Positions 11,032 through 57,052 of a stretch of 64,000 nt of DNA are shown here, in pieces (within the stretch, counting starts at the first letter, position 1; the number at the start of each line of letters is the position of its first letter). The stretch is from Rhodothermales bacterium. GTDB lineage: Bacteria; Bacteroidota; Rhodothermia; Rhodothermales; Bin80. A program made the position numbers and the translations under genes. The stretch spans positions 461,276 to 525,275 of the forward strand of contig OZ241385.1 in assembly GCA_965200825.1 (NCBI GenBank), in the 5' to 3' direction. The notes below the pieces were generated by a model that saw only the letters and a program-made list of their open reading frames with translations, was not told the origin of the DNA and searched no databases.

Positions 11032-11532
11032 ATGAAAACTACCCTACTGACTCAATCAGATCAAAAGGAGGCACTTTCACATGTGTATGTGAGGTCACTC
11101 GCTGCTATATCTGGTTTTATTACGTCTGTACCAGAGCAAGATCGTGATAGTGTTGACTTACGAATCCAGGCTGGCGGTTCTCGTAGGCCTGCCTTAGATC
11201 TACAATTAAAGGCCACAACTAAATTATCGGCTAACCAAGAAGGTGCTCTAAATTTTCGCATCTCTATTAAAAACTACAGAGATCTTCGCGACAAGACGCA
11301 AACTCCGCGATTGCTCGTTGTATTGAAACTACCAGAGGACCCGTCAAAATGGTTGATGGTAACTCCTGAAAAACTTATACTTCATAGTCATGCCTATTGG
11401 CTTAGTTTACAAAAGGGTTATGAGGACGTGGCTGATCAAGAAACGATTACGGTCCATATTCCTCAAAAAAATGTACTCAATGTTGAAACTTTGAAAACCC
11501 TAATTGAACAATCCAGAACTGGTACAATCTAA
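11032..11532 (+). CDS. DUF4365-like (PD-(D/E)xK-clan nuclease-like fold) protein
   Basis: 166 aa. N-terminus QSDQKEALSHVYVRSLAAISGFITSVPEQDRDSVDLRIQ follows the pattern I recall for DUF4365 (…E.lg..yV..la…Gf…..Eq…DyGiDl.I.). Its stop shares 1 nt with the next start (taATGa). Confidence 0.5.
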   Translation: MKTTLLTQSDQKEALSHVYVRSLAAISGFITSVPEQDRDSVDLRIQAGGSRRPALDLQLKATTKLSANQEGALNFRISIKNYRDLRDKTQTPRLLVVLKLPEDPSKWLMVTPEKLILHSHAYWLSLQKGYEDVADQETITVHIPQKNVLNVETLKTLIEQSRTGTI

Positions 11533-36220: not shown

Positions 36221-37419
36221 GGAATTTTGACAACATAAGCTTTTCCTGCATTCACGCCACTGGCTGCACCAATGAGGGCAGTATTACCATGCAAATCAAT
36301 TGAACTCCCGAATGCAGCTTCTCCAATGTCAATGATTCCCTGATATTGCCACTGATCATTGTCACGTGCATATATATAGACTACACGGTCCACATTGTAA
36401 TTCAGGTGTAGTTGTTCATCGTAGCCAACTACCAATGCGCGATCTTCATAGATTGCGACCTCTGTACCAAAAGCCCCTTTCCGATAGGGAGTAGGGGGCT
36501 CCAATGTTGCTGTTTTTTCCCAAACACCAGTTGAATCTTGCGCAAATAATGTGGCTTGCCCAGATTCTCGAGAACCGGATCGGGCCTGTCCAATAATCAA
36601 CTCATTCTCGTATAGGTCAAGGGAAATAAAAAAATCCTGAATTCCCCCGAGTCGGGCAACCTCGGACCAAGATCCAGATTGATCCAATCCAAACAGATAC
36701 ACAGATCCAGCCCCGCGGCCGAAGTAGCTACTACTGGCAACTGCCAGGAAGTTTTGGTAGAGAGCAGCATTTCCTCCAAAAACGCCTCTTTGAATGTTGC
36801 CAGATCCGACTAATCGTTGTTCCAAGATCCATTTTCCAGCATTCTTTTTGTAGATATAGGCAGCTCCGTCTATCTCGTTACCGGGCGACAGATTTCCACT
36901 GGTTGTAAAGAGCGCACGGTCATGATAGACTGCAACGTCTGCCCCCGCTGCCCCTTCTTGTTGCTCACGTGTGTCACCGGTAAGTCTTTCGGTCTGAATC
37001 CATTTCCCTGGCTCAATCTCTTCGTACACATAGACGGCATTGGAATGTTCATCGCCGAAGAATTCCCGACTTGCTGCCACTAGAACAACAGATCCGTCAA
37101 TAGCGACCTTCTTGCCAAAGGCAAGCCCTTTCTCGCAGTCTTGTGGAACAAGCCGAGCCACTTGCATCCAGGATTCGGTAGAATCATTCACTTCATAGAT
37201 ATAAGCTGCCCCACTTCCTGCATCACACGACCGTTCGCCACTTGCTCCGACAACAGCCCGTTTCCCATCAAGAGCCACGGAAGTCCCAAAGTAGTTGCCA
37301 CTCGTGGTATCAGCATAGGGAAGTCTTGTGATCTGTGCCTCCACACAGAATGCAATACTGAATCCCCAAACAAATAATACAGTAATTCTCCACGAGATGT
37401 AGACTAAAAAACCCTTCAT
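36217..37419 (-). CDS. Secreted FG-GAP repeat (integrin-alpha-like beta-propeller) protein
   Basis: Start at MKGFLVYISW… (signal). Repeated YFGTSVALDG…, AFGKKVAIDG…, VFGGNAALY…, AFGTEVAIY…, AFGSSIDLHG… FG-GAP units. 4-bp overlap with the pnuC end. Confidence 0.6.
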   Translation of the reverse strand: MKGFLVYISWRITVLFVWGFSIAFCVEAQITRLPYADTTSGNYFGTSVALDGKRAVVGASGERSCDAGSGAAYIYEVNDSTESWMQVARLVPQDCEKGLAFGKKVAIDGSVVLVAASREFFGDEHSNAVYVYEEIEPGKWIQTERLTGDTREQQEGAAGADVAVYHDRALFTTSGNLSPGNEIDGAAYIYKKNAGKWILEQRLVGSGNIQRGVFGGNAALYQNFLAVASSSYFGRGAGSVYLFGLDQSGSWSEVARLGGIQDFFISLDLYENELIIGQARSGSRESGQATLFAQDSTGVWEKTATLEPPTPYRKGAFGTEVAIYEDRALVVGYDEQLHLNYNVDRVVYIYARDNDQWQYQGIIDIGEAAFGSSIDLHGNTALIGAASGVNAGKAYVVKIP

Positions 37420-37557
37420 TGTATAGATTCCATAGGGGATTATATACGTGAGTAACCAATGGTATGGAACTTTGATAAGATGCACGAGTATACGGACACA
37501 ATAAGCAGGAGTAGGATCCTGCCTATTGCTTATCATAGCATCATCTACAGTGATACC

Positions 37558-38802
37558 ATGCCCGCGAGGGATTCAAAGAAGAACGAACAGGACTGTTCCT
37601 ACCGAGGAATTGAGTACCGTCTCTGTCCGGGTTCGCAAAGCAAGGCCAAGAATCTGGCTGGATTAGCCGGTGCATGTCGGTTTGTATGGAATGAGATTCT
37701 TGCCGAATGCAATGAAGAGTATAAAGATGAAACCAAAGAAAATCCTAAGTTGACCTATTTTTCTCTGGGGAAGCGGTTTACCAAGTTACGCCATTCTGTA
37801 TCGTGGTTAGGAGGTTATTCTGCGAATATTGTTAAGTACACATTGAAAGATCAAGCAGACGCGTGGCAGAAGTATTTTAAGGGTACGGCGAGCCGTCCTG
37901 ATTTCCATAAGAAGCATAAGCATACGGATTCGTTTACAGCAACAAAAGGATTGTTCAAGATTGTAGATGATAGTGTATACATCCAAAAGGTTGGCTGGAT
38001 GAAGTTCAGGCGCAATGGAGGGAATCCATACCCGGACGGTGAGCCGATTGAGTTGACAGTAAAGAAAGAGGGGCGGTACTGGAAGATGAGCGTGATTTAT
38101 AAGATTCCAACTCCGGAAAAGACGGAGAACGGCGTGGCTGTTGGTGTGGATCTAAATACGTACAACGTGGCCTGGACGTCTTCGGAAGGAGATCAGGGAA
38201 TGCTACCCATTGAGAAACCAGATATAAAAGAGATTCGGATCAAGCGCTATCAGAGGAAATTAGCAAGGCAGAAGAAAGGCTCGAACCGTAGAGCTGTAAC
38301 CAAGCGCAAGATTGCCAAGTGGAAACGAAAACAGAAAAACACTCGAAAGAATCAGGATCATCACAACAGCAAGGCATTGGCACGGAAGGCTGAAACTCTG
38401 GTACGGGAAGATCTGGGTATCCAGAGGATGTCCAAGAGTGCCAAGGGAACGGTAGAAAATCCCGGCAAGAATGTGAAAGCGAAGTCAGGGCTAAACCGCG
38501 TGATCCTGAACTCTTCATGGGGGCGATTTAACCGGTATTGTGACTACAAATTCAGCAAAGTAATTACCGTGGATCCAAAATATACGTCTCAGACCTGCAA
38601 TCAGTGTGGACACGTAGCAAAGGATAACCGAAAGACACAGAGTAGATTTAAGTGTATGGCCTGTGGCCATGCGGACCATGCAGATCTGAACGCGTCTGCA
38701 AATATCTTGGCCTCCGGGATTGGGGCTACTGGGCGTGGGAGGGGCGTTTCCGTTAGGAACCCCATTGATCCGTCAAATGGATACGGTTATTCACGTATAT
38801 AA
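37558..38802 (+). CDS. tnpB: TnpB (IS200/IS605-family OrfB, RuvC-like RNA-guided nuclease), solo IS1341-like element without tnpA
   Basis: …IEYRLCPGSQSKAKNLAGLAGACRFVWNEIL… N-terminal region, and a C-terminal zinc finger CNQCGH…KCMACGHADHADLNASANI within a RuvC-III motif. No Y1 transposase is adjacent. Confidence 0.8.
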   Translation: MPARDSKKNEQDCSYRGIEYRLCPGSQSKAKNLAGLAGACRFVWNEILAECNEEYKDETKENPKLTYFSLGKRFTKLRHSVSWLGGYSANIVKYTLKDQADAWQKYFKGTASRPDFHKKHKHTDSFTATKGLFKIVDDSVYIQKVGWMKFRRNGGNPYPDGEPIELTVKKEGRYWKMSVIYKIPTPEKTENGVAVGVDLNTYNVAWTSSEGDQGMLPIEKPDIKEIRIKRYQRKLARQKKGSNRRAVTKRKIAKWKRKQKNTRKNQDHHNSKALARKAETLVREDLGIQRMSKSAKGTVENPGKNVKAKSGLNRVILNSSWGRFNRYCDYKFSKVITVDPKYTSQTCNQCGHVAKDNRKTQSRFKCMACGHADHADLNASANILASGIGATGRGRGVSVRNPIDPSNGYGYSRI

Positions 38803-40788
38803 TTCCCATTCCATAAGTGTTTCCCAATTTGCATATAATTCGTTTAATTCCCTTTCAATCTCTGCATATGCAGCACTGGCTTCCTGTGACCGTACAGGGT
38901 CTGCGTAGGTAGCTGGATCAGCCAGAGTTTTCTCTGCTTCGCGTTTTCTTAGTTCTGCATCCGCAATGGCACTCTCTGCTTCATCACAGAGCCATTTTAA
39001 CTGATGGGGAGTGAGTTCATCAGGACTGGAGCGGCCATTTATTCTGGCTTCTCGATAGGCTCTATTGCGTGCCTCTGCTTCCCGCCTCTTTTCTTCTTTG
39101 GTTTTAGGGCCGCCGGATCGGGGTTTAGAGATAGGTTCGTGACGTGTTTTCTGAATCTGTTTGACTTGACGAAGAGAGCCATGGTCAAGTGCCCAGCGAT
39201 ATTCAGAATAGGTCCCATCATATATACGAATTTTCTGGTCTCCCACATGCCAAATTACATTGGCCACATGATCCAGAAAATGTCGGTCATGGCTTACCAC
39301 TACAAAGGTGCCAGCATATTGACGCAGAGCCTCAATTAACACTTTGATGGACTGAATATCCAGGTGGTTGGTCGGCTCGTCCAAGATCAGAAAATTCGCC
39401 GGATTGACGAGTGTCCGTGCAAGTGCCAAACGACTCTTTTCACCTCCAGAGAGGACATGAACTGGCTTAAATACGTCATCTCCAGTAAAAAGAAACGCTC
39501 CAAGTAGAGTGCGCAGATAGACTTCCTCACGTCCAATTGCTTCTCTTTCAAGAGATTCCAGCACCGTATCGGTTGAGATCAATTCATCTGCTTGGTGCTG
39601 GGCAAAGAAACGTACATTTACATTATGACCTTTTTTGCGATCACCTTGAATGGACTCACTTCCATAGAGAATTCTTGCCAGAGTTGACTTTCCGGCACCA
39701 TTTTTTCCGATCAGGGCAATTTTCTGGCCGCGATTGATTTCCAAAGGGCCTGCTTGATCAAATACGCTCACACTCGGCTCATCTGTGCTTGGATATATCT
39801 TTGAGAATTGGCCAAGAGATAAGACGACGCGTCCGGATGGGGGCGGGGCGGGGAACCGTATACGAATCTGTGCATCCGGTGATTCTGGCGCAGGAATGCG
39901 TTCCAGTTTTTCAAGGTGCTTAATTCGGCTTTGAACTTGTCGTGCTTTTGAAGCCTTGTATCTGAAGCGCGCAATGAATCGTTCGGCTTGCTGAATTTCC
40001 CGCTGTTGATTTTCATAGGAAGCCTGCTCCAGGACACGGCGTTTTTCCCGCTCAACGAGAAAAAAATCATAATTGCCAGCATACTCCGTGACGCGCCCTT
40101 GGTATAGATGGGCCACGGTGTCAATCATTCGGTTAAGGAAGTACCGGTCATGTGAAACCAGAATGACAGTACCGGAATAGCTTTTGAGGTATTTTTCTAA
40201 CCAGTCAATGCTCAGGATATCCAAATGGTTCGTAGGCTCATCAAGTAGTAGCAAATCCGGTTTTTGGAGCAGAATTTGAGCCAACGCCACACGCATTCGA
40301 TATCCTCCCGAGAGAGTTTCTATGGGACGATTGAGGTCATCAGTTGCAAAGCCCAAGCCTTCCAGAACAGATTCCGCACGCGCTTGGGCAGAATGAGCTC
40401 CTTGAATGGCTAATCGCTCGTGAATTAACTCTAATTCCGAAAGAATCTTATGATGATTAGTATCTGGATTTTCGAGAGCTTGAGTCAACTCTGTTTCCCG
40501 TGCCTGCAGAGATTCAATAGAGTCAAAAGCGGTCAGTGCTTCTTCAATAACAGATCGGCCAGATGCCAGATCTTGAACATCCTGGGATAGGTATCCAACT
40601 GATCCGGAACGGGAAACTTGGCCTGTATCGGGAGTTAATTTTTCTCCGATTACGCGCAACAGAGTTGTTTTTCCGGCGCCATTGGGGCCAATCAGTCCGA
40701 TGCGTTTTCCATCTCCAACGGTCCAGGTGAGTTCGTTGAGAATTGGGTTCCCCCCGAGTGTAACTGCAATACTCTGTAGCTGAATCAA
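38791..40788 (-). CDS. ABC-F family ATPase (Uup/EttA-like, two ABC domains plus C-terminal coiled-coil domain)
   Basis: Two Walker A motifs (GPNGAGKTT; GKNGAGKST), two LSGG signatures, inter-domain linker, charged C-terminal tail. Confidence 0.85.
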   Translation of the reverse strand: MIQLQSIAVTLGGNPILNELTWTVGDGKRIGLIGPNGAGKTTLLRVIGEKLTPDTGQVSRSGSVGYLSQDVQDLASGRSVIEEALTAFDSIESLQARETELTQALENPDTNHHKILSELELIHERLAIQGAHSAQARAESVLEGLGFATDDLNRPIETLSGGYRMRVALAQILLQKPDLLLLDEPTNHLDILSIDWLEKYLKSYSGTVILVSHDRYFLNRMIDTVAHLYQGRVTEYAGNYDFFLVEREKRRVLEQASYENQQREIQQAERFIARFRYKASKARQVQSRIKHLEKLERIPAPESPDAQIRIRFPAPPPSGRVVLSLGQFSKIYPSTDEPSVSVFDQAGPLEINRGQKIALIGKNGAGKSTLARILYGSESIQGDRKKGHNVNVRFFAQHQADELISTDTVLESLEREAIGREEVYLRTLLGAFLFTGDDVFKPVHVLSGGEKSRLALARTLVNPANFLILDEPTNHLDIQSIKVLIEALRQYAGTFVVVSHDRHFLDHVANVIWHVGDQKIRIYDGTYSEYRWALDHGSLRQVKQIQKTRHEPISKPRSGGPKTKEEKRREAEARNRAYREARINGRSSPDELTPHQLKWLCDEAESAIADAELRKREAEKTLADPATYADPVRSQEASAAYAEIERELNELYANWETLMEWELYT

Positions 40789-40797
40789 AGCTATAAA

Positions 40798-42195
40798 TCA
40801 ATATGCGTTTCGATTGACAAATCCTTTCCAGACGGTCAGGATCATAATCTTTACATCCAAGAGCAGAGACCAGTTTTGGATATAATACAGGTCATGCTGG
40901 ATTCGCTTCTCCAGAGAAGTATTTCCGCGCCATCCATTAACCTGTGCCCATCCGGTTATTCCCGCTTTCATTTTATGTCGTTGCATATATCTTGGAATTC
41001 GATCCTTGAAATCTTTGATGAATACCGGCCGTTCAGGGCGAGGTCCTACGACAGACATGTCTCCTTTTAGTACATTGATGAATTGAGGTAATTCATCCAA
41101 GGAAGTACGCCGGAGGATTTTTCCGAGTGGGGTTGCACGGTTTTCGTCTTTTTTCGCCCAGACAGCCCCAGAATCCTGTTCTGCTGTTACGGGCATTGAA
41201 CGAAATTTCAGCATGTTGAAGCACTTTCCATTAAGGCCCATACGCTCCTGTTTGTAAAGTACAGGCCCTTTCGATGAGAGCAGGACCAGCAGAGATATAA
41301 CCAAAAGAAGAGGGGAAAGGATAATCAGGACTAATAACGAAAAAGCAACGTCTACACTACGCTTCACGAATCGACGAAAATCCATGGGTGTTTCATCAAT
41401 AATATGCAGGACTGGAAGGCCATCTACGTCCGTAATACGACTATTGATAATGTCGTGCTGCAAAAGATCCGGGACTAAGCAAACATGTACTAAACGTGAC
41501 GAAAGTGAACTGAGTAGTTTTTCGATTTTACCTACCGCCTGAAGTGGTAGAGCAATATAAACGTAATCGATGGGGTCCGTGGCCGAGTCAAGCAGTGGAA
41601 GCACATCCTCCACTTTGCCGAGAACATCAGGTTCATCAATTTTATGGTCATCCAGGAACCCAATCACCTGAAATCCCATCCAAGGATATAATTCAAAGGA
41701 TTTTTCCAGACGCCGACCCGCAGTTCCAGCACCAACAATAAGAACACGTCGCAGGTTACGCCCATTCCTGCGGGCATTACGAACATAGTAGTAAATGCAG
41801 AGTCGCAGGCTCAGCATGGAGAGTGGTGTCAATGTCGCAAAGAGTAGAATCGTCAGACGTGAAACATTAAAGTCACGATAAAAGGATAAGAACGCCATCG
41901 AGACAATCAGGGCTAATCCGACTGATTTGGCCACACTTCGAATGAGGCTAGTCCAGCGCTGTGCCCTATCAGGCACATATAGGCCTGATGCCCAGAATGT
42001 GAGTGCAGCAGAAATCAGAATCCAGGGAAAGAATGTCAGATATCTGCTCAGCGGATGCCATTCCGGAAGCGGGATTGGCCAAGTGACAAAAACTTCAAAC
42101 CGAAGATAGTACGCTGCAATCCAGGCGCTTCCTACGAGGATCATATCCGCGAAGAACAGCAATTGTTGATAAAATCTGCTTTGTTCCTGCAACAT
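40798..42195 (-). CDS. Undecaprenyl-phosphate sugar phosphotransferase (WbaP/WcaJ-type exopolysaccharide priming enzyme)
   Basis: 465 aa. N-terminal TM bundle, Rossmann-like CoA-binding region, C-terminal bacterial sugar transferase domain …DELPQFINVLKGDMSVVGPRPERP…. Confidence 0.85.
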   Translation of the reverse strand: MLQEQSRFYQQLLFFADMILVGSAWIAAYYLRFEVFVTWPIPLPEWHPLSRYLTFFPWILISAALTFWASGLYVPDRAQRWTSLIRSVAKSVGLALIVSMAFLSFYRDFNVSRLTILLFATLTPLSMLSLRLCIYYYVRNARRNGRNLRRVLIVGAGTAGRRLEKSFELYPWMGFQVIGFLDDHKIDEPDVLGKVEDVLPLLDSATDPIDYVYIALPLQAVGKIEKLLSSLSSRLVHVCLVPDLLQHDIINSRITDVDGLPVLHIIDETPMDFRRFVKRSVDVAFSLLVLIILSPLLLVISLLVLLSSKGPVLYKQERMGLNGKCFNMLKFRSMPVTAEQDSGAVWAKKDENRATPLGKILRRTSLDELPQFINVLKGDMSVVGPRPERPVFIKDFKDRIPRYMQRHKMKAGITGWAQVNGWRGNTSLEKRIQHDLYYIQNWSLLLDVKIMILTVWKGFVNRNAY

Positions 42196-42231
42196 GGAGG
42201 GCTTCTGTTGTAGACGAGTACTCTTAGTAGG

Positions 42232-43479
42232 TTAGCTGAGAGATGCAGCAAGTCGTTTTGCAGTATTCAGGAGTACATTTGCTCCCTTAACGCAAGCCTC
42301 CCAAGGAGTAAATTCGCGAGAGGAGTGGCTATATCCCCCTACCGAAGGCACAAAAATCAAACCTGAAGGGGAAAGTAGTGACATGGATTGTGCATCATGT
42401 CCAGCCAGTGATGGCAGGTGCTTAAATGTGATTCCAAGTTTTTCGGAAGATGATTCAAAAATATTGATGATGGAAGGATCCATCTTTTGTGCAGGGACTG
42501 CTTCCAGAAACTGAAAGTCAAGCTCCAGTCCAAATGTGTTGGCAGCAGATTGTGCTTTCTGATGAAGATCTTCCTGTAACATCTCAGCACGCTGAGGATT
42601 TTCACTGCGCAGTTCCATAAATACTGTGACTCGGCCAGCTATAATATTAAAGGCTCCGGGTGAAAAATCCATATGTCCGACTGTAGCGACACAGTCTGGG
42701 TATTTTTCGCTGACTGTCTTTTGAACCCTCAGGCAAAATTCACTGGCTCCCAGCGCAGCATCCTGCCGCTCATTCATAGGAGTAGTTCCTGCGTGATTGG
42801 ATTGTCCTCGAAATGTGACTAGATACATATAAATTCCGACCATCCCGGTCACGATTCCTATATCTGTTTTGCTCTGTTCAAGTCGGGTGCCTTGTTCAAT
42901 GTGGAGTTCAAGATAGGCACGAAGTGTCTTGCTATGTCGAGTGGCAGATAAGATTCCCTCGTTTGTGAGATCAGCCCGTTTCAGTGCTTTCTGAAAAGCT
43001 TCTGGGTTACCTCTTGGGTTATTCAGATCTTGTAGGGTTAGCTGTCCAGAGGCTGCACGGCTCCCAAGAAGTGATATCCAAGTTCCTTCCTCGTCGGTAA
43101 AGTCAATAACTTCCATGGAAGCTTGAGGATAGTGAACACGCAGAATCTGGATCACTTCAAATGCAGAAGCAATTCCAAGAGTGCCATCAAACCGTCCTCC
43201 GTCTGCCACAGAATCAAGATGTGAACCAAGTAAAATCACGGGTTGGGCATGTTCGGGAGAGAAATTACGAGCAGAAAGATTTCCCGCACCATCTTCATGG
43301 ATTTCAAATCCGCGCTCACAGATCATGTTACGGAACGTTTCTCGTGCAGACAGGTGCGCTTCACTGAGGGCAGGTCTGTTTAGTCCGCCATCTTTTGTGG
43401 CTCCGTCTCGAGTTAATCGCTCGAAGTCCTCACGGAATCGTGTTTCGTTGATATGCAAGAGAGGCTCTGAGATTGTCAT
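42232..43479 (-). CDS. M20-family Zn-dependent amidohydrolase (allantoate amidohydrolase / N-carbamoyl-amino-acid hydrolase type)
   Basis: 415 aa. …ILLGSHLDSVADGGRFDGTLG… metal-binding region, …GHMDFSPGAFNIIAG…. Confidence 0.7.
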   Translation of the reverse strand: MTISEPLLHINETRFREDFERLTRDGATKDGGLNRPALSEAHLSARETFRNMICERGFEIHEDGAGNLSARNFSPEHAQPVILLGSHLDSVADGGRFDGTLGIASAFEVIQILRVHYPQASMEVIDFTDEEGTWISLLGSRAASGQLTLQDLNNPRGNPEAFQKALKRADLTNEGILSATRHSKTLRAYLELHIEQGTRLEQSKTDIGIVTGMVGIYMYLVTFRGQSNHAGTTPMNERQDAALGASEFCLRVQKTVSEKYPDCVATVGHMDFSPGAFNIIAGRVTVFMELRSENPQRAEMLQEDLHQKAQSAANTFGLELDFQFLEAVPAQKMDPSIINIFESSSEKLGITFKHLPSLAGHDAQSMSLLSPSGLIFVPSVGGYSHSSREFTPWEACVKGANVLLNTAKRLAASLS

Positions 43480-43524
43480 CTTCTTGGATAGGCTCTTCCA
43501 AAGGAGTATTCACAGGTTTAATAT

Positions 43525-44451
43525 TCAGAGGGGATTGACATCAAGTGCAATATCAATTGCTTGAACGGAATGAGTTAGAAATCCACAGGAGATATAGTCA
43601 ACACCGGTCGCTGCAATGAGAGGAGCTGTTTTTAATGTAATTCCACCAGTTGCTTCCGTCTTTATACGTCCATCAATATGCTTTACGGCTTGAATTAAAG
43701 GAGAGCAGTCAAAGGTACCGTCGGATTGATAGGTAGCCATATTGTCAAGAAGGAGTACATCAATTAGTGCTGCAACCTCCAGAGCCTCATTTACTTCCTG
43801 TATTGTACGGGCTTCAATATCGATCGGATAACCGGGCTTGGTTTTTGCAGCACGTTTAACACATTCAGTGATGTTCCCAACCACTTGAATGTGGTTGTCT
43901 TTAATCAAAATTCGATCATATAGTCCAATACGATGATTAGAGCCACCTCCGATACGTACAGCCCATTTATCCAGAACTCGCAGTCCTGGTACGGTCTTAC
44001 GGGTATCACGGATACGTACAGAAAACTCTTTGACGCTGGCTACCATCTTGGCTGTTGCAGTGGCAATCCCGCTCATTCGTTGCAGTAGATTCAAAGCCAG
44101 ACGCTCTGCGGTCAGAATTGATTGTAAAGGGCCGGAAATAGTACCTATAGTTGTATCTGCCGCTACTGATTTTCCGTCATTGTATGACCAGTGGCATTTG
44201 ATCACGGGATCTACGAGGTGAAAGGTATCTCTGGCAAGTGTCAGTCCTGCAATCACGCCTTTTTCCCGCATAACGAGAGTTGCCTGCCCTTGGATATCAG
44301 GGGACAAAAGTGTTTGTGATGTAATGTCCCCAAGTCCGACATCTTCTTCCAAAGCATCTTTGAGGATGTGATGCAAGTGCTCGGATGAAAGATAATGGGG
44401 GAGCTGTTCATATGAAGACATGCGTTCAATCAGCAACGCTGTATTCACCAA
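43525..44451 (-). CDS. nadC: Nicotinate-nucleotide pyrophosphorylase (carboxylating), quinolinate phosphoribosyltransferase
   Basis: …GLGDITSQ…, …[22 protein letters not shown]…, TIM-barrel QPRTase layout. About 300 aa. Confidence 0.85.
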
Positions 44452-45418
44452 TCCGGTCCAATCGTTTCAAGCGTTGACGAAGCAAATCTTCAGTAGACAA
44501 TTTAGCCAGATTTTTCAGCGAATCACAGACAGCCTCCCCAACGAGATCATAGGTCGTAGAGGGATCTTGGTGTGCACCACCCAATGGCTCTTTGACGATC
44601 TGGTCAACAATGCCTACATCAATCAGATCAGGTGCGGTCAGCTTCAATGCACGTGCAGCTTCCTCTTTATAGTCCCATGATCTCCAGAGGATTGAAGAGC
44701 AGCTTTCGGGAGAGATCACAGAATACCAGGCATTTTCGAGCATAAGCATTTGATCTCCAACTCCAATCCCGAGTGCACCGCCGGATGCTCCTTCACCAAT
44801 TACAACTACTACAATTGGAACCGGAAGTCGTGCCATAACAAACAGGTTACGGGCAATCGCTTCCGCTTGGCCACGCTCCTCTGCATCCATGCCGGGGTAC
44901 GCTCCGGGAGTATCCAGGAGGCAAATAATGGGTTTTCCAAATTTTGCTGCAAGCTCCATATGTCGTCGTGCCTTGCGGTATCCCTCTGGGTTAGGCATCC
45001 CAAAACGTCTATACCGACGTTGTTTTGTATCACGGCCTTTTTGATGCCCAATCATCAATACCGTATGATTTTTGTACCCATACTCCGCGCCATTCAGAGT
45101 TGCGAAGCCGCTGACGATAGCCGGATCATCTCCGAAGCATCGGTCGCCATGTAGTTCCACAAATCCTTTCGTCAGTGCACCAATGTAATCGTTCGTATAG
45201 GGTCTGAGTGGATGCCTTGCGATCTGTACTCGTTGCCAGCGAGTCAGATTGCCGTAGATGGAATTTCTGAGTTCTTCAATGCGAGTGGAAAGTGCTTCAA
45301 TGTCGGGGGACAGATCGATGCCATCCGCATCAAGTTTCCGTAGATCATCAAGCTTCTCTTCCAGCTCAAAAATCGGCTTTTCGAAATCCAATAGAAATTT
45401 GGTGGATTTATTGATCAT
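44426..45418 (-). CDS. accA: Acetyl-CoA carboxylase carboxyltransferase alpha subunit
   Basis: 330 aa. …[12 protein letters not shown]…, …GDDPAIVSG…, [15 protein letters not shown]. Confidence 0.9.
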
Positions 45419-45491
45419 GATTCGTTTCAGAGAGGGAGCGAGTCAACAAGTCTGATGCCCGGCGGTTCCTGTGGAGGATCGCATTGCGAAC

Positions 45492-47318
45492 TCATGAATC
45501 TCCCACACTCAAACTGCAATTACTCTGTATATCTTCTACAGCTTTTCGTTCATCGTAGTCCATGGTTAATCTCCATGTATCCTTGAGTGCAACCCAGCGC
45601 TTAACATAAATGCAGTGGTAGGTTGTGTTCGGTGGGAGCCAATTTGCAGGATCTCGACTTCCCTTGGATCGGTTCATACTGGCGGAGACTGGAATCAGCA
45701 ACCCACCTTTGCTGAGGTCATTTCCAAAAGAATAACGTGTACTATCATCCCATTTTGCTGCACCACTACGATGTGCCTCTGCAAGCGGTATGAAGTGATC
45801 AATATCTATTGCACCCGGATCGGTTATGAGTGTATCCAGGTATGGATCGAGCCACTTGCCAGCAAGAACGATGCATTGAGTTTCATCGAGGGTTGGGTCA
45901 ACGAGGCTCTCGGCGATCAGGACTTCATGTCGTGTATTCTGGCAATCACTGTCCGCATCTAGCCAACCTCCATATAGATTTCGATGATAGGGCAGAGGTG
46001 AAGTGCGAACAGAAGATGTGTCTGGTGAATTTGTGAGGAGGTCTGTAGAGTCTACAGTGACACTGGGTGCATCTGCACAAAACCCAGATTCCTGAAAATT
46101 CGAAAGTGTTTCAGGAGGAATCTCTCTCACATCAAGGAGTTCGTCCAGTGTTGTAAACGATCCATGTTGGCTTCGATACCCAATGATCGCCTGTGCTCTG
46201 ACGGGGCCAATCCCATGCACACGTTGAAGAGTTGAAGCATCCGCGGTATTGATGTTTTCACAGGCGGTTTCGGATAGAATGGAATCATCTAAAGTAACGT
46301 GCGAATGATGATCTGGGTATTCACCTGTGCTATTGGATACATGGATGCAAAAATTTGCCCTTCGAAAATTCTCAAGCGTAGCTTTTCCGATCCCTCTGAC
46401 TTGAATCAAGTCATCCAGCGATTCAAAGAATCCGTGTTGCTCACGATAGTCAATGATAGTTTGTGCTTTCGTGGGGCCAATTCCTTGAATACGTTGAAGA
46501 GTTGCAGCATTCGCAGAATTGATGTCGGTACAATTTTGATCTAAAGTGGCCGAAATATTGGCAGGCGTCTGAGATTGGGTCTCCGAGTTTCTATTTGTTG
46601 TGCTGGCCTTCTCCCGTGCTACACAGAAGCCTGCATCCCGGAAATTTTTAACAGTGGCTGGGCCGATGCCTTTCACCTGTGCCAAATCGTCTAAGGACTG
46701 AAATGGCCCGTTTTGATTGCGATAGTCTATGATAGCTTGTGCTTTGGATGCACCGATTCTATTTACTCGCTGAAGATCCGAAGCATTGGCTGTATTAATG
46801 TCGTTGTCACAGTCAGTTTCAGGAACTATTGGACCATCTGCAGGCGGGGGCGAGGGATCGTTTTTGGGTTCATTTGTTTGGGTTTTATCCTGCACACAGA
46901 AGCCAGCTTTGCGGAAATTCTCAACGGTGGCAGGCCCAATGCCTTTAACTTGTGCCAAATCGTCCAAGGACTGAAATGGTCCGTTTTGATTACGGTAGTC
47001 AATGATTGCCTGTGCTTTGGCACGTCCGATCCCTTTGACTCGTTGGAGCACTGCTGTATTTGCTGTGTTTATGTCTTCGCAGTTGCTGGCAGTTTGGATT
47101 CGTGTTATATCGTGATCAGTCGTCCAGTCTGTTTCAGGAGCATCTTTCTCAAGGTTGTCACCAAGTAAAACAGCAGTTAAGGAAGCGTTTCTTGCCATTG
47201 AGGTTGCGGGCCCCGAAAATATTGGCAAAATCAGAAAGAGGAGAAAAGAGAAGGAAATCAGAGTTAGTGATGCCAGTATAGATTGGTTTATGGGAGAGTA
47301 CAACTTGGCTTGATTCAT
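45492..47318 (-). CDS. Secreted protein: four tandem ComEA-like helix-hairpin-helix DNA-binding repeats fused to a C-terminal DUF1524 (His-Me finger/HNH-like) nuclease domain
   Basis: Signal peptide. Four ~95-aa repeats each carrying …INTA.A..LQRV.GIG..KAQAII.YR.Q.GPF.SLDDL.QV.GIG.AT…NFR.AGFC…. C-terminus DIDHFIPLAEAHRSGAAKW…FGNDLSKGGLLIPVSASMNRSKGSRDPANWLPP matches the DUF1524 core. Confidence 0.65.
   Translation of the reverse strand: MNQAKLYSPINQSILASLTLISFSFLLFLILPIFSGPATSMARNASLTAVLLGDNLEKDAPETDWTTDHDITRIQTASNCEDINTANTAVLQRVKGIGRAKAQAIIDYRNQNGPFQSLDDLAQVKGIGPATVENFRKAGFCVQDKTQTNEPKNDPSPPPADGPIVPETDCDNDINTANASDLQRVNRIGASKAQAIIDYRNQNGPFQSLDDLAQVKGIGPATVKNFRDAGFCVAREKASTTNRNSETQSQTPANISATLDQNCTDINSANAATLQRIQGIGPTKAQTIIDYREQHGFFESLDDLIQVRGIGKATLENFRRANFCIHVSNSTGEYPDHHSHVTLDDSILSETACENINTADASTLQRVHGIGPVRAQAIIGYRSQHGSFTTLDELLDVREIPPETLSNFQESGFCADAPSVTVDSTDLLTNSPDTSSVRTSPLPYHRNLYGGWLDADSDCQNTRHEVLIAESLVDPTLDETQCIVLAGKWLDPYLDTLITDPGAIDIDHFIPLAEAHRSGAAKWDDSTRYSFGNDLSKGGLLIPVSASMNRSKGSRDPANWLPPNTTYHCIYVKRWVALKDTWRLTMDYDERKAVEDIQSNCSLSVGDS
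45998..47078 (-). repeat. Four tandem ~290-bp coding repeats (ComEA HhH modules) inside 45492..47318
   Basis: Protein-level near-identical repeats, and the same is visible at DNA level (for example the …ttggcacaggtgaaaggcatcggcccagccactgtt… variants). Confidence 0.6.
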
Positions 47319-47427
47319 GAGAAGGTTTATTGTGAATTTTGCTGATTCCTCAATGTCAAAATAGTTTGATTAGGGAGAGATGGCCATGATCAGCAGCAGA
47401 ATAGACGAAGGTGGTAAGTAGAACTTC

Positions 47428-47736
47428 TTAACTCAGCACCACATATTTCTCCTTAATTCGTTCCTTGAATGCCTGTGGCAGATCATTCCAGACAAATAGA
47501 TCAACCCGAAACAATAGATCACTTTCTTCAAATGCTTCTTGTAGGTCATGAACGAGATGTTGTTGCTCGGGCGATGCAAAAACTACGAGGTCCAGATCTG
47601 ATGTGGGGCTGGATGTCCATTTTACACGGGATCCATATACCCAAGCAGGTATACCTGGAAGATGTTGATCAAGTAGTTCTCGAATAGTCGAGTATTCGTC
47701 AGTACTAATGTCGATAGTTTGATCAATTAGTTCCAT
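47428..47736 (-). CDS. Minimal nucleotidyltransferase (MNT) of a HEPN/MNT pair
   Basis: 102 aa. GSRVKWTSSPTSDLDLVVF (GS…D.D nucleotidyltransferase motif). Confidence 0.7.
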   Translation of the reverse strand: MELIDQTIDISTDEYSTIRELLDQHLPGIPAWVYGSRVKWTSSPTSDLDLVVFASPEQQHLVHDLQEAFEESDLLFRVDLFVWNDLPQAFKERIKEKYVVLS

Positions 47737-48143
47737 GGTTCTCCGGTCAATGTTTCGTAGAGATGAATGGCATCGACGATAAAATCAGGTATAAGTGAAA
47801 TGCAGTCCTGAGCCTTTTCGCCGTCGTAGTCGTGAGATGTATTAATCCGGGCATTTGCGTAACGAAACCATTGCGCCAAGGATCCAGATAGTAGAGTATT
47901 TTCGTTAGCAAGCCTCAAGACAGGTTTAGGACTGCTTGGGATCGTAGCAATCCCAAGCTCTTCAGTCATATACCTCTTCATCACCTTCCAGAGACATTCG
48001 TAGCAAACTTCAAAGCGCTGTATGATTGATTCTGCGACTGCCTCTTGGTCAAGGATCGGGGACGTCGGGGGCTTGTGCAAATAATTTTCATATTGTTCCT
48101 CCAGACGTTTGAGGGATAGGCGAAATTTAGTGTAGTCAATCAT
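47727..48143 (-). CDS. HEPN domain protein (HI0074-type nucleotidyltransferase substrate-binding protein)
   Basis: 138 aa. C-terminal R-x4-H motif RINTSH in RYANARINTSHDYD. 10-bp overlap with the MNT gene. Confidence 0.65.
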   Translation of the reverse strand: MIDYTKFRLSLKRLEEQYENYLHKPPTSPILDQEAVAESIIQRFEVCYECLWKVMKRYMTEELGIATIPSSPKPVLRLANENTLLSGSLAQWFRYANARINTSHDYDGEKAQDCISLIPDFIVDAIHLYETLTGEPWN

Positions 48144-48456
48144 GAAAAGTCACAGAATGATTTCTTCTGGAGTTGAGATATTTTCATTGGAATATAATCG
48201 AAGGCTTCTCAGCCATTTATGTGAAAATTTAAATTTTCAGATTCTGGGATCCACATCACGAGACTACCAACGCATAGGAAGACGGGAAAATCTCTTCCAC
48301 TTCCACAAGAAGTTTTTGAAAACTCCCCGAATTTATGACTCATCTCACAACCAAAAGCTGTAGCTCCGAATGTAATTTGATGCAACATTTCGTGGCATTA
48401 AGTTTACGAATCCTTTCAATCAAGAAGGATGCTCAATGAGCAGTACAGTATAGTGC

Positions 48457-50490
48457 TCAAGTTGATCCACGTAGCGCTCGCGCGGCGATCATCCAATCCA
48501 TTGCAGCGGATTGATTTCGCACATAATACCAGTATGCGTGCTCAATTTCTTCCGGTGGACGCTTAAGACGAGGTCCTAACATTTCACTGACCGCAAATAC
48601 TCCTGATCGGAGTTGCCATTCCGGATCGGGAATAAAATCTCCTTCTTCGTCAAAACCAATCAGCGATCGCTTTCCAAGCAGAACAGTACGCCACTGTCGG
48701 GTGCGTTCACTCCTGCGTGCCCACCTAGACTGGGGGCCTGCCAATTTAGAAATCAGTAAAATGACTGGATGAATGATAGCTCCAATCAGTGCGGCAATCA
48801 TATCAGATACGCGACGGGCAGCAGTAGATCTTAATGTTCCAATCACTTCTTCAGCATCCAGAAGTGTGCGTTCTCCCAAGTTTTCAATGGACGACTTTCC
48901 AATGAGATGATCCTGGCGTTCAGCCAGAATATAAGTCTGCATAGGAATTCCCAAGAGCTTTTGCATGAGCACAAAAATTTCTTTATTGGTCAAAGTGGCG
49001 GATGCAAAAATTACAGTTTCGATGTTATGGATACGTACAATATCACGTAATTGATCGTAGTTGCCCAATCGGGTAAGCGTTGAGTGCACATTATTTTTTT
49101 GCTCCTGTGTTACAATTCCCACAAGAACATATTGTGATAGATATTGCGAAGCAAGAATATTCGCATCGAGAAGATTTCCCACGACAATAGTCCTCCGCCC
49201 AAGTCGCTTGCGAGTTTTTGGAATTAGTCGTACGGCAGAGAGGAACAGTAGACAGGCAGGCAGGCAAGCAAGCACGACCATCCGCGAAAATGCTATTTGC
49301 TTAATGAAGAATGAAAGTGCTGCAAGTACAATCACAGAAACGAAAGATCCCAGCACAACAAGTCCCAAGCGAGGGCCTCTTCCCCGATACCCCCCCCAAG
49401 CAGCGATGACTCCGGTAACAATTAGTGCAAAAAGTGGAGATAATCCCCAATAGAATATAGGGGGGAATTGCAATCCAGATTGAAAAGATCTCAGAAATCC
49501 TAAAGAAGTAATAATTCCAAAGCAGATCATTAAATCATATGCGGCCGCATGGCGCAGCATATTTCCCAGTACAGTGAGTGATCCGCGAACAATCACAGCT
49601 AGGTGTAAAATCCACAGAAAGATTTTAGGGTAATCTTCACTCAAATGCTTTTGTGCGAAGCGAGTCATTGCGCCATAGAAGAGGCGCACATATTTAAAAT
49701 CCCCTTTCTTGGTACTTTCACCTTTATAGTGGATGATCTGAGTTTCCGGGGTATAGTAAATAGTCCAGCCAGCATTCTGGATTCGATAACACAAATCGAG
49801 ATCCTCTCCATACATAAAGAAATCTTCGTCAAAAAGCCCCGATCCACCACGGCCTGGGGGGGCATCGGGGGAGATGAGGGCTGATTTTCGCAAAAACATG
49901 CAGGACCCACTCAGAGCATCCACGGTGGCGATCTGATCCTCGGGCAGAAATGTAAGGTTGTATTTACCGAAAATCCGACTCCGTGGAAATATTCGACTCA
50001 ATCCGGTCATTCGGTAAAATGCAATTATTGGCGTAGGAAATGAACGGCGACTCTCCAAGGCAAATGTTCCATCGGGGTTCAGAATACGGCATCCTACTGC
50101 TCCGGCATCCGGGTGAGATTCCATGAAGTCAATCAATACCTTGATTGTATCTTCTTCAACAATAGTGTCGGGGTTCAGAATGAAGATGAATTCTCCATTT
50201 GCTACGCGTATACCTTGGTTGTTGGCCACGGAGAATCCATTATTTTCGTGATTGACAATCAATGTGATGTGAGGGAATTCCTCAACCAGCATACTCACTG
50301 AGCCATCCACTGAGTTATTGTCCACGACAATTACTTCAGATGAAATATTGATAAGGGATCGTTCAATGCTCCGAAGAGCCTGCCGAAGAAGGTCTCTCAC
50401 ATTATAATTAACAATGATCACCGATACCTTGACGGGTTCGGGTGATTTACCTAGGGGAGTCTGTGTGATTGTTAGGTGGTTGTCACTCAT
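48457..50490 (-). CDS. Family 2 glycosyltransferase fused to a C-terminal multi-TM/soluble extension
   Basis: N-terminal VSVIIVNYNVRD…VVDNNSVDGS… (GT-A, DxD-like VDNNS), then several TM helices and a ~250-aa uncharacterised C-terminal region. 677 aa. Confidence 0.7.
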   Translation of the reverse strand: MSDNHLTITQTPLGKSPEPVKVSVIIVNYNVRDLLRQALRSIERSLINISSEVIVVDNNSVDGSVSMLVEEFPHITLIVNHENNGFSVANNQGIRVANGEFIFILNPDTIVEEDTIKVLIDFMESHPDAGAVGCRILNPDGTFALESRRSFPTPIIAFYRMTGLSRIFPRSRIFGKYNLTFLPEDQIATVDALSGSCMFLRKSALISPDAPPGRGGSGLFDEDFFMYGEDLDLCYRIQNAGWTIYYTPETQIIHYKGESTKKGDFKYVRLFYGAMTRFAQKHLSEDYPKIFLWILHLAVIVRGSLTVLGNMLRHAAAYDLMICFGIITSLGFLRSFQSGLQFPPIFYWGLSPLFALIVTGVIAAWGGYRGRGPRLGLVVLGSFVSVIVLAALSFFIKQIAFSRMVVLACLPACLLFLSAVRLIPKTRKRLGRRTIVVGNLLDANILASQYLSQYVLVGIVTQEQKNNVHSTLTRLGNYDQLRDIVRIHNIETVIFASATLTNKEIFVLMQKLLGIPMQTYILAERQDHLIGKSSIENLGERTLLDAEEVIGTLRSTAARRVSDMIAALIGAIIHPVILLISKLAGPQSRWARRSERTRQWRTVLLGKRSLIGFDEEGDFIPDPEWQLRSGVFAVSEMLGPRLKRPPEEIEHAYWYYVRNQSAAMDWMIAARALRGST

Positions 50491-55531: not shown

Positions 55532-57052
55532 CTAATGTTCAACTTGAATGCTCAGAGGAGTCTTTTCATCATCAACGTTCTTTTGGTTGTTGATGAAAGG
55601 GATTGAAGAATAATATGGCCTCACTCTCAGATCATGAGCAACTCGGATAAAGAGCCAAACTCCAATGAAGCCAATCAAAATATTTGCACACCACATGCCG
55701 ATCCAAGGAGTGAGCAGTTCTCGATCAGCCAGTTTTTCTCCCTGAACCAGAGTGATCCAGTAGAAAATAAAAATACTCATCGCTGCAAGGCAGGCAACTC
55801 CGAGTCCCCCCCGACGAATACTTAATCCAAGCGGTATGCCAATCAGGACAAAAACAAAGCAAGCCACGGAGATTGAATATTTTTTGTGAATCTCCACCTG
55901 ATAGCGGCTGATGATCGTGGTAGTACGTTTGAGATTCCGCCCCTTACCAGAAGCTGTAGTTCGTGCATCCTGCCCATAATTCCGCGCATTCTGATATATG
56001 CGCCGAACTTGGTCCGTAGTTAATCCATCTAATATGCTGCGCCGAGCGATCGAATTCGTCGGATCTTCCCTGTTAAATGCAGATATTGAGGCTGATTGGT
56101 TTAAATTCTGTCCCGAAGCTCCATTGGAATCCGTTACCGAATCTCTCCTATGGTGATCAGAGGAGAGCGGGGTTGGTGCTATACTTCGGAGCTCGATAGT
56201 CTGCTCCGTAAATTGATGTTTGAGAGAATCTACAATCTCAAACATCTGATCTACAGGTGTTGAGCGATCTGATCGATAACTCCCGGTTTGAGGTGCAGTT
56301 TGAAATCCGAGCTCGCTAAGATCAAGGCGCAGTTGGAGGCGCTCAAAACTGAGTTGTTCATATCGTTCAATGGTGATGGCCTTGGAGGGACGGAAGAGTC
56401 GATGTACTTCACCATTCAGGAGTATCATATCCAGAAAGTCTCCCTGTGGGATCAGTTCTCCACGGTCAGCATGAATAGTTGCAACATTGGCCACCCCCTG
56501 TGTATAGTCGTAGATCAGAATATCGTAGAGAGAATTGCCTTCTCGTTTTCCAACCAAAATACTGTATTCGTCAATCTCCTGATAGAATACACCTGGTTCT
56601 AGTTCAAATCCGGGTCGTGCATTCCGAATGGTCTGCCACATATTGAGGGCCCTGAAGTTTGATTCAGGGAGCAATACGTTATTGAAGTACATCATCCCCC
56701 AAGAAAGAAGGGCCGCGGCAAGGAGCACCGGCCAACTTAGACTCCAGAGGGTAATGCCACAGTTACGAACAACTACCCAAGAACGTGATTCTGCCAGTGA
56801 GCCGAAAACCATTAACGTTGATAGAAGAGAAGCCATGGGTACGGCTAACACGATCATATAGGCAAGATTGTAGGTAATCAGTTCCAGAATGAGAGCAATC
56901 GGCAAATCTCTTCCTGTCAATTCCGGTAGAAATTTAATCAGGAACTGCATCAACAACAGAAATAACAAGAGCAGTAGCCATCCCAAAAATGGGCCTGGCA
57001 GTTGCTTCAATATCATTTGGTGGATGATTCTCATCTTTGGAAAAAAGCCCAT
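55532..57052 (-). CDS. LptF/LptG (YjgP/YjgQ) family LPS export permease
   Basis: 506 aa. N-terminal 3 TM (…ILELITYNLAYMIVLAVPMASLLSTLMVFG…), large periplasmic beta-jellyroll with a low-complexity insert, C-terminal 3 TM. Confidence 0.75.
   Translation of the reverse strand: MGFFPKMRIIHQMILKQLPGPFLGWLLLLLFLLLMQFLIKFLPELTGRDLPIALILELITYNLAYMIVLAVPMASLLSTLMVFGSLAESRSWVVVRNCGITLWSLSWPVLLAAALLSWGMMYFNNVLLPESNFRALNMWQTIRNARPGFELEPGVFYQEIDEYSILVGKREGNSLYDILIYDYTQGVANVATIHADRGELIPQGDFLDMILLNGEVHRLFRPSKAITIERYEQLSFERLQLRLDLSELGFQTAPQTGSYRSDRSTPVDQMFEIVDSLKHQFTEQTIELRSIAPTPLSSDHHRRDSVTDSNGASGQNLNQSASISAFNREDPTNSIARRSILDGLTTDQVRRIYQNARNYGQDARTTASGKGRNLKRTTTIISRYQVEIHKKYSISVACFVFVLIGIPLGLSIRRGGLGVACLAAMSIFIFYWITLVQGEKLADRELLTPWIGMWCANILIGFIGVWLFIRVAHDLRVRPYYSSIPFINNQKNVDDEKTPLSIQVEH

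Follow-up and report, generated by a model that had tools for sequence, protein, structure and literature searches.

A predicted exported protein of a Rhodothermales bacterium combining four ComEA-type HhH modules with a DUF1524/His-Me finger nuclease domain

The window analyzed here (the whole 64,000-nt stretch of contig OZ241385.1 from a Rhodothermales bacterium) carries on its reverse strand a 608-aa open reading frame that starts with ATG and in which Pfam and NCBIfam profile searches agreed on the domain order of the original prediction, i.e., four helix-hairpin-helix (HhH) modules followed by a DUF1524/His-Me finger domain. Neither of the two findings named in advance as refuting that prediction was made. 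The database protein P0001/P0264 is 100% identical but annotated from M41 only, the 608-aa form is present in the database as P0263, and a search of genome contigs with the full protein returned one locus, that of a Rhodothermales MAG. The features are as follows.

45492–47318, reverse strand: whole gene (ORF list, Pfam, NCBIfam), encoding a leader, four ComEA-type (HhH)2 modules and a DUF1524/GmrSD_C nuclease domain
47196–47318, reverse strand: predicted N-terminal export leader, aa 1–41 (hydropathy; conservation in relatives)
47217–47279, reverse strand: hydrophobic core of the leader, aa 14–34 (21 residues)
46896–47081, reverse strand: HhH module 1, aa 80–141 (HHH_3/TIGR00426; Cys80...Cys141; hairpins KGIGRAKA and KGIGPATV)
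46623–46811, reverse strand: HhH module 2, aa 170–232, 85% identical to module 1
46347–46532, reverse strand: HhH module 3, aa 263–324, 66–69% identical to modules 1 and 2
46077–46262, reverse strand: HhH module 4, aa 353–414, 56–58% identical to the other modules
45516–45989, reverse strand: nuclease domain, aa 444–601 (DUF1524/GmrSD_C His-Me finger)
45795–45806, reverse strand: DIDH, aa 505–508 (D507/H508 are the invariant D77/H78 of alignment A1)
45714–45722, reverse strand: NDL, aa 533–535 (N533 is the second invariant Asn)
45660–45674, reverse strand: NRSKG, aa 549–553 (N549 is the predicted metal-ligand Asn)
47428–47736: MNT-side gene (Polbeta/NTP_transf_2)
47727–48143: HEPN-side gene (NTase_sub_bind, E 2e-23; contains RINTSH)

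The HEPN/MNT pair that had been placed upstream is real according to Pfam, and nothing links it to the nuclease gene. No HEPN or MNT Pfam match was obtained in the called flanking genes at two of the three relatives' loci (P0005 and P0016), and the contig of the third and closest relative ends just upstream of the nuclease gene; a functional link was rejected. On the other side, accA begins 73 nt past the stop codon, both here and in the closest relative. Neither a conserved immunity-like or other partner gene nor competence, pilus or comEC genes adjoin the gene here or at the three relatives' loci, and the latter three types were also not found in the 43 scanned of the window's 52 longest ORFs. 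The PADLOC defence models gave no match to the nuclease protein, and consensus scans for promoters and terminators around the gene remained at background level.

HhH modules and nuclease domain

HHH_3 of Pfam matched the protein over four stretches (E 5e-80), as did each of the NCBIfam families TIGR00426 (“ComEA HhH repeat region”) and TIGR01259 (comEA). Measured between their Cys-to-Cys cores, to which the module coordinates given above refer, the modules recur with a period of 90–93 aa (270–276 nt), composed of a 62–63-aa core and a 28–30-aa polar linker. The earlier description of the repeats as near-identical fits modules 1 and 2 only, the other pairs being 56–69% identical. A tandem repeat at the DNA level was recovered by a seeded direct-repeat search, with 60–79% identity to the reference copy, but Tandem Repeats Finder reported nothing for positions 44000–48500, because the repeats are too diverged at the DNA level. 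The x-I-G signature is retained in seven of the eight hairpins; the exception is the degenerate second hairpin of module 4, which has REIPP in place of GIGP. The number of hairpins that bind DNA may therefore be below eight, and the nuclease-proximal module of several relatives is degenerate in the same way.

Compared with PDB sequences, module 1 matched the HhH repeats of animal EEPD1 best (8e-18; PDB 9yi2) and also ComEA (8dfk, 2e-11), and the modules also matched the ComEA structure 8dss. Judged by sequence, they are bona fide ComEA-type (HhH)2 domains and are predicted to bind dsDNA non-specifically. ComEA itself (TIGR01259/TIGR00426/PF12836; PDB 8dfk, 8dss, 2duy), a small protein working with ComEC and the pilus in competence, shares this module and an N-terminal hydrophobic segment for export or anchoring, but its single HhH domain is not accompanied by a catalytic one, whereas four modules and a nuclease are joined here. 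Moreover, a conserved Cys pair brackets the modules of the present protein, while Cys are few or absent in most of the ComEA-like matches from beyond the clade. In EEPD1, tandem ComEA-type HhH modules likewise lie N-terminal to a nuclease-fold domain; unlike the protein described here, with its four modules and His-Me finger, EEPD1 has two modules and an EEP-fold catalytic domain, and is eukaryotic and intracellular.

The C-terminal domain matched PF07510 (GmrSD_C, formerly DUF1524) with 36.4 bits in the whole protein, above the gathering score of 23 (E 5.9e-9), and with 39.6 bits when isolated (E 6.1e-10). The motifs DIDH, NDL and NRSKG quoted in the original prediction are all present, the catalytic motif running D507-H508-F-I-P and then N533 and N549, which are the invariant N103 and N119 of alignment A1. 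Across the 23 family sequences of this alignment, column identity in the nuclease domain averages 65% and 44 columns are invariant, among them an N-terminal loop W-x-D-x-D-x-D-C-x-x-T-R-x-E and Cys 459, 482, 569 and 601. In the 141 more distant representatives, D-H, N and three of the four domain Cys are kept in at least 90%. DIDH aligns with the “VDHVIP” of Cas9 HNH in a non-significant profile match, and NRSKG with its “NREKGNRIP”, in both cases at the motif level only.

Searches of the nuclease domain against the PDB, with the single sequence and with a profile, gave no significant match. In the predicted model, a beta-strand ends at DIDH and is followed by a later strand and a helix, in keeping with a beta-beta-alpha-metal core, and the structural neighbours of the model are HNH/His-Me nucleases. 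The domain is a DUF1524/His-Me finger, and nuclease activity is predicted for it. The Endonuclease I group (E. coli EndA, V. cholerae Dns/EndA and V. vulnificus Vvn; PF04231) comprises periplasmic or secreted, non-specific, disulfide-dependent His-Me nucleases (PMC5714182), and the likeness of the model to it is modest (TM 0.36–0.43, i.e., <0.5; Foldseek E 0.03). PF04231 was not matched by the nuclease domain in the Pfam search even at E ≤ 10, and HhH modules are absent from Endonuclease I, so membership of that family is not supported and the likeness is functional and architectural.

Related architectures

The combination had been called unusual, but it is not unique: HhH modules occur together with this nuclease domain in approximately 45 protein clusters (90% identity), mostly from MAGs of Rhodothermales/“Bacteroidota”, and among the 141 nearest nuclease-family representatives (50% identity), HHH_3 is present in 10. 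The clusters contain one to six modules, which precede the nuclease, follow it or flank it at both ends, with three to six when the modules are N-terminal and one to three in the other arrangements. The anticipated variation in repeat copy number therefore exists between lineages, but no change was found within any of the 90% clusters examined. HhH-only, Cys-bracketed multi-module relatives (P0038 and P0046) and relatives in which the last third of the nuclease domain is missing (P0267/P0268) were also recorded. Fusions of HhH with a ComEC-like metallo-beta-lactamase were seen among the matches as well.

The nuclease domain family as a whole numbers 2,472 representatives at E ≤ 1e-30, mostly consisting of a signal peptide and the domain and often fused to Excalibur; PKD and LTD fusions occur as well, and the minimal homologues are a classical signal peptide followed by a nuclease domain with four Cys. 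“Putative extracellular nucleases” have already been listed in the DUF1524 group of the His-Me finger classification (PMC5714182). With these secreted enzymes (His-Me group 3, “TM helix and Excalibur domain”, PMC5714182) the present protein has the entire ~165-aa domain in common, with its DxDxDC...TR.E loop, DxDH, N, NRSKG, WLP and four Cys, as well as a predicted N-terminal export signal and accessory extracellular domains; these accessory domains are four ComEA-type HhH modules here versus Excalibur, PKD, LTD or none there. In the literature searched, no account of the ComEA-HhH plus DUF1524 architecture was found, nor any assay or characterized member of the secreted DUF1524 group.

Leader and probable location

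At the place of the signal peptide of the original prediction lies a conserved hydrophobic leader, the sole such segment in the protein, with a mean Kyte-Doolittle value of 2.4 over 19 residues, one Lys (K5) in its n-region and a candidate signal-peptidase site, TSMA|RN, formed by small residues (S-M-A|R). P0002 (70% identity) and P0272 retain the leader, including a shared SM(A/P)RN motif, and an N-terminal hydrophobic segment is found in most full-length relatives. However, an h-region of 21 residues is long for a cleaved Sec signal, and the leader could be an uncleaved membrane anchor. Twelve Cys are invariant among the 23 aligned family sequences, a pair bracketing each module and four in the nuclease domain, and together with the conserved leader they argue for export of the protein. 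Such export would be in line with the presence of the extracellular Ca-binding Excalibur domain in 24 of the 141 nearest representatives.

The extracellular location that had been proposed is less well founded. An LptF/LptG permease is encoded in the window at 55532–57052, so the host is diderm, and neither a T9SS C-terminal domain (Por_Secre_tail-type) nor any other outer-membrane secretion signal was found among the Pfam matches of the protein, the nuclease domain of which reaches to within 7 residues of the C-terminus. For these reasons, the protein is at least as likely to reside in the periplasm, the compartment in which ComEA and Endonuclease I act in Gram-negatives, or at the surface as to be truly extracellular. 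Because substrates of the T2SS are not marked by any sequence signal, secretion past the periplasm is possible.

Proposed function and its alternatives

The protein is proposed to be a Sec-exported DNA endonuclease that is stabilised by disulfides, cuts irrespective of sequence and captures DNA multivalently through its own modules, a reading to which a probability of about 0.68 is given. Its leader would carry it across the inner membrane, and in the oxidising periplasm the flanking Cys pair would close each (HhH)2 module while two disulfides would form in the nuclease domain. Because these disulfides would form in that compartment, the enzyme would be active only outside the cytoplasm and no immunity protein would be needed; disulfide-gated activation is known for exported His-Me nucleases (PMC5714182). 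Up to four modules on their flexible polar linkers would grip the dsDNA backbone with no sequence preference, and their combined avidity would retain dilute DNA, also at the ionic strength of seawater. The C-terminal His-Me finger would then cut repeatedly, with H508 as the general base and N533/N549 acting with a divalent metal; the DxDxDC loop is a possible Ca2+ site. The site of action is likely the periplasm or the cell surface of the diderm host, where the enzyme would probably break down exogenous DNA, serving either to supply the cell with nucleotides and phosphate or to keep incoming DNA out.

A DNA-uptake entry nuclease, in which the ComEA dsDNA receptor and the entry nuclease are parts of one chain (compare pneumococcal EndA and Bacillus NucA), is a much less probable explanation. 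Such a periplasmic protein, whether membrane-anchored or free, would draw DNA inward by a ratchet through a type IV pilus/secretin and cut or degrade it, so that the DNA could be taken up by way of ComEC (transformation) or consumed as food. The modules are of the right kind, the long h-region fits a membrane anchor, and HhH fusions to the ComEC-like domain are known from the matches described above; in addition, the His-Me finger nuclease EndA of S. pneumoniae needs ComEA for recruitment to the uptake machine (PMC3764208), and ComEA works in the periplasm of Gram-negatives, where it pulls DNA inward (PMC3879209). Against this stand the missing competence, pilus and comEC genes at all of the loci and ORFs scanned and the composition of the wider nuclease family, in which stand-alone secreted forms or Excalibur/PKD/LTD fusions typical of scavenging nucleases predominate. 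Moreover, Endonuclease I/Dns/Vvn, which are structurally the closest relatives, reduce transformation instead of furthering it (PMC5714182). Should this rather unlikely single-chain periplasmic arrangement nevertheless operate in pilus-driven uptake, with the HhH modules ratcheting dsDNA and the tethered nuclease processing it, capture and degradation would be physically coupled, feeding the cell or handing ends to ComEC. The fusion would also connect ComEA and EndA in the Rosetta-stone sense, the evidence for their partnership in pneumococcus being co-localisation only, and would point to a route by which possibly sponge- or marine-associated Rhodothermales take up DNA as food.

It is improbable that the protein is a structural DNA binder of the envelope or biofilm, the HhH modules cross-linking or tethering extracellular DNA and the nuclease being inactive or serving for trimming only. 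Multivalent binding would suit cross-linking, and the HhH-only relatives and those with a truncated nuclease domain agree with such a role, but the strong conservation of the catalytic D-H, N and N and of the whole nuclease domain, with its 44 invariant columns, speaks for catalysis being under selection.

Two further readings, as an antibacterial toxin/effector or as a type IV restriction enzyme of the GmrSD kind inside the cell, are very unlikely: PF07510 is best known from the GmrSD/BrxU/SspE defence nucleases, with which the catalytic Pfam family is shared, His-Me fingers are frequent toxin warheads (PMC5714182) and a HEPN/MNT toxin-antitoxin pair lies upstream, but its Sec-type leader and paired Cys point to export instead of the cytoplasmic location of those enzymes, and the protein lacks the N-terminal DUF262/GmrS (ParB-like NTPase) domain, a PADLOC match and any delivery domain of the Rhs, PAAR, LXG or CDI kind and is followed by accA rather than an immunity-like gene, so both forms were rejected.

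Understood as an exported nuclease with its own capture array, the protein overturns no concept, as many secreted nucleases are familiar that bear accessory domains for DNA binding or surface attachment. Exported non-specific nucleases govern the amount of environmental DNA that a bacterium eats, tolerates or takes up, and the possession of a high-avidity DNA-capture array suggests that this one is adapted to high salt and to DNA in dilute form. The modular disulfide-stapled HhH array may also provide a scaffold for a salt-tolerant, processive DNase. Since the secreted DUF1524 family includes thousands of 50%-identity representatives, characterization of the present protein would annotate many genes.

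Gene model, export leader and catalytic domain

The nuclease gene lies exactly where it had been placed originally, on the minus strand at 45492-47318, and is listed as an ORF with an ATG start encoding 608 aa. In three identical NCBI proteins (P0001, P0262 and P0264; 568 aa) the start is placed at M41, which leaves out the hydrophobic segment, while the form obtained from other gene callers, P0263, has 608 aa. This long form is the better gene model, since P0002, the closest relative (70% identity), conserves the hydrophobic stretch and the 'SMARN' after it, and since the same pair of calls recurs in a more distant lineage, with a truncated P0015 and a P0272 carrying the leader '...LILPMF...LSMPRN'. 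An N-terminal hydrophobic segment is present in most full-length relatives. Family members annotated without the leader look cytoplasmic; they probably are not.

47196-47318, minus strand: leader region, aa 1-41, cut off in the public 568-aa annotation
45930-45947, minus strand: DxDxDC loop, aa 458-463, within WLDADSDCQNTRHE, invariant and outside the Pfam match

The leader contains one Lys and a 21-residue h-region (aa 14-34), the sole strongly hydrophobic window in the protein, with a candidate small-residue cleavage site between TSMA and RN. The leader sequence contains neither a twin-arginine motif nor a lipobox Cys. A cleaved signal usually has a shorter h-region, so the leader may instead be a signal anchor. 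The LptF/G permease encoded in the window shows that the organism is diderm and, given that no outer-membrane sorting signal is detectable and that ComEA and Endonuclease I both act in the periplasm, this compartment would be the default location of the nuclease. The conserved leader thus supports the export proposed in the original prediction, but not the extracellular location that went with it; release to the medium is possible.

Pfam assigns residues 483-585 to GmrSD_C (PF07510, the former DUF1524) scoring 36.4 bits where the gathering cutoff is 23, as expected for the C-terminal domain. When 23 nuclease domains of the family are aligned (A1; mean column identity 65%, 44 invariant columns), the invariant positions, in full-length numbering, include D507-H508 of DIDH, N533 of NDL, N549 of NRSKG, W560-L-P and four Cys (459, 482, 569 and 601). 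The W-x-D-x-D-x-D-C-x-x-T-R-x-E loop at the N-terminal start of the domain is likewise invariant, and its DxDxDC part is the least confident part of the AF2 model (pLDDT 56-58); it may bind Ca2+, as it resembles DxDxDG-type sites, including the Excalibur motif. Sequence comparison of the domain with solved structures gave no significant match. At the motif level, in a match that is not significant, 'IDHFIP' falls on 'VDHVIP' and 'NRSKG.RDP' on 'NREKGNRIP' of the Cas9 HNH domain, which in Cas9 are the positions of the His acting as general base and of the Asn that ligates the metal. On these grounds the domain is classed as a His-Me finger whose predicted active site is intact. The Endonuclease I family, PF04231, gave no match to the domain; by sequence the domain is a PF07510 member, and in modelled shape it is similar to the periplasmic Endonuclease I.

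The HhH array and the wider family

Four stretches of the protein matched HHH_3 of Pfam (E 5e-80, whole protein), and the NCBIfam ComEA models TIGR01259 and TIGR00426 gave four matches each; the four modules accordingly match the ComEA type foreseen for them and are, by sequence, members of the ComEA HhH family. Their Cys-to-Cys cores, all encoded on the minus strand, are as follows.

aa 80-141: HhH module 1
aa 170-232: HhH module 2
aa 263-324: HhH module 3
aa 353-414: HhH module 4

The linkers between them are 28-30 aa long, polar and mostly acidic, which gives the array a period of 270-276 nt. The description of the modules as near-identical had to be abandoned: the cores of modules 1 and 2 are 85% identical, while module 3 reaches 66-69% and module 4 56-58%, the DNA copies are 60-79% identical to the reference, and Tandem Repeats Finder reported no repeats at the array. 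Of the eight hairpins, seven retain the x-I-G signature; in module 4 the second one has the sequence REIPP, and the nuclease-proximal module of several relatives is similarly degenerate.

A word-indexed search with the whole protein as query yielded about 45 clusters joining HhH modules to PF07510, with named members from 'Bacteroidetes/Bacteroidota bacterium', 'Rhodothermaceae bacterium' and one 'Gammaproteobacteria bacterium' MAG, annotated merely as 'helix-hairpin-helix domain-containing' or 'DUF1524 domain-containing' proteins; the species-representative genome set gave one match, in a Rhodothermales MAG. The arrangement differs among relatives: three to six modules may precede the nuclease (mode four), two or three may precede it with one following, or one or two may follow it. 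The six-module P0004 (793 aa) contains two identical consecutive module-plus-linker units of ~90 aa, a recent duplication and direct evidence for array expansion by tandem duplication. The anticipated copy-number variation is found among relatives (3-6 N-terminal modules), but not inside the 90%-identity clusters examined, where all members have the same number of modules and lengths differ through start-site or truncation artefacts. Modules 3 and 4 pair with the modules at the same positions in P0002, and in most other relatives module 1 has its best match in module 1; by this positional matching the array is old and largely stable.

A nuclease-domain profile, run against 1.84 billion representatives at 50% identity, gave 10,224 matches with E<=1e-3, of which 2,472 reached E<=1e-30. 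Among the best 141 new representatives, GmrSD_C was present in 138, Excalibur repeats in 24 and HHH_3 in 10, and a few carried PKD, LTD, fn3 or SH3 domains. IMG/VR contigs classed as viral (L006-L056) held 51 relatives, mostly of 165-200 aa; in most of the ~45 readable ORFs a classical signal peptide directly precedes the domain, commonly with four Cys, and HhH motifs were absent from all of them. Judged by the domain counts and these minimal relatives, exported nucleases of this type form a very large family, in which the HhH fusion is a minority but recurrent variant. The literature searched contained no experimental characterisation of any member of the nuclease family, no paper on the HhH fusion and none assaying a secreted DUF1524 enzyme.

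Several IMG/VR matches are located at contig ends. The whole P0014 cluster has NLSKG in place of NRSKG, and its members P0267 and P0268 end at '...NLSKGS', without the last ~55 nuclease-domain residues; these changes may reflect nuclease decay in one lineage. Among P0072-P0120 are many candidate-phyla-radiation proteins (Kaiserbacteria, Adlerbacteria, Parcubacteria) in which a signal peptide, a single ComEA HhH module and PKD domains occur together, and in four other matches, P0048, P0061, P0100 and P0117 HhH is joined to a metallo-beta-lactamase (ComEC-like) domain. Exported proteins reuse ComEA-type modules widely.

Gene neighbourhood

From 40798 to 50490 every gene is on the minus strand, and the gene order is GT2/sugar-transferase fusion, HEPN, MNT, nuclease, accA, nadC, M20 amidohydrolase, Bac_transf sugar transferase and ABC-F.

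47727-48143, minus strand: HEPN-type NTase_sub_bind gene, containing RINTSH (Rx4H)
47428-47736, minus strand: MNT, minimal nucleotidyltransferase, with a GS...DLDL motif
38791-40788: ABC-F protein, last in this gene order
37459-38802, plus strand: IS605-family OrfB/TnpB, 447 aa (Cas12f1-like TNB, OrfB_IS605, HTH_OrfB)
11532-12680, plus strand: unannotated 382-aa ORF, abutting the DUF4365 gene
11032-11532, plus strand: DUF4365 protein, near the DDE_Tnp_1 transposase
8362-9495, minus strand: DDE_Tnp_1 transposase

The HEPN/MNT pair does sit directly upstream of the nuclease gene, as had been noted, with HEPN first and a 10-nt overlap; MNT also matches the PADLOC models 'Specificity_I' and PDC-S09. 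The closest relative's locus keeps nuclease-accA-nadC-M20-Bac_transf-ABC-F, and HEPN/MNT is not scorable there, the contig ending 450 nt upstream. Two more distant relatives have unrelated neighbourhoods, one beside a transposase and the other beside STAND-like ATPases, with no gene conserved beside the nuclease. Since the called flanking genes in two of the three relatives' loci examined gave no HEPN/MNT Pfam match, the two genes were probably inserted as an independent toxin-antitoxin unit.

The ~1.2 kb before TnpB (36221-37458) holds no long ORF, and the DDE_Tnp_1, DUF4365 and 382-aa ORF group may form a small islet of mobile or defence-like nature. Of the 52 longest ORFs in the window, the 43 that were scanned have housekeeping functions or belong to mobile elements (they include ClpB, SMC, MacB-type ABC, ECF sigma factor, PFK, AmtB, M16 peptidase, PnuC, LptF/G, YbeY, IS605 TnpB and DDE transposase), with no competence, pilus or secretion-system genes.

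Proposed mechanism and role

The molecular picture favoured here, with a probability of about 0.68, is that of an exported, disulfide-stabilised, metal-dependent His-Me nuclease that captures DNA through its HhH modules. The protein would be exported by Sec via its conserved leader, which may be cleaved, and would fold oxidatively, with one disulfide stapling each HhH module and two in the nuclease domain; these bonds are proposed because the Cys are invariant and strictly paired, and such Cys are absent from most ordinary ComEA matches. Disulfide dependence would hold the enzyme inactive in the cytoplasm, as in Endonuclease I/Vvn and Serratia nuclease (PMC5714182), which fits the lack of a conserved inhibitor gene. 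Up to four modules on flexible linkers would then bind dsDNA non-specifically and multivalently, presumably with avidity and salt tolerance, and the conserved His-Me residues would carry out metal-dependent hydrolysis.

The simplest physiological options are that the nuclease scavenges exogenous DNA or keeps it out. A dedicated uptake role, with ComEA and an entry nuclease fused, is attractive but unlikely: it would recall pneumococcus, where EndA recruitment depends on ComEA (PMC3764208), but finds no support in the gene context. A matrix or eDNA-tethering role is more doubtful still, and a toxin or restriction role is highly improbable.

Among known systems, a GmrSD restriction enzyme is ruled out by the missing DUF262 domain and by export, and canonical ComEA by the four modules plus catalytic domain. 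Periplasmic Endonuclease I is closest in its presumed working mode, to which the nuclease adds a DNA-capture array. Animal EEPD1, which gives module 1 its best match in the PDB, has a parallel layout, two ComEA-like HhH modules with a nuclease of unrelated fold. The protein is a new domain-architecture variant of a known protein kind, which brings no conceptual surprise.
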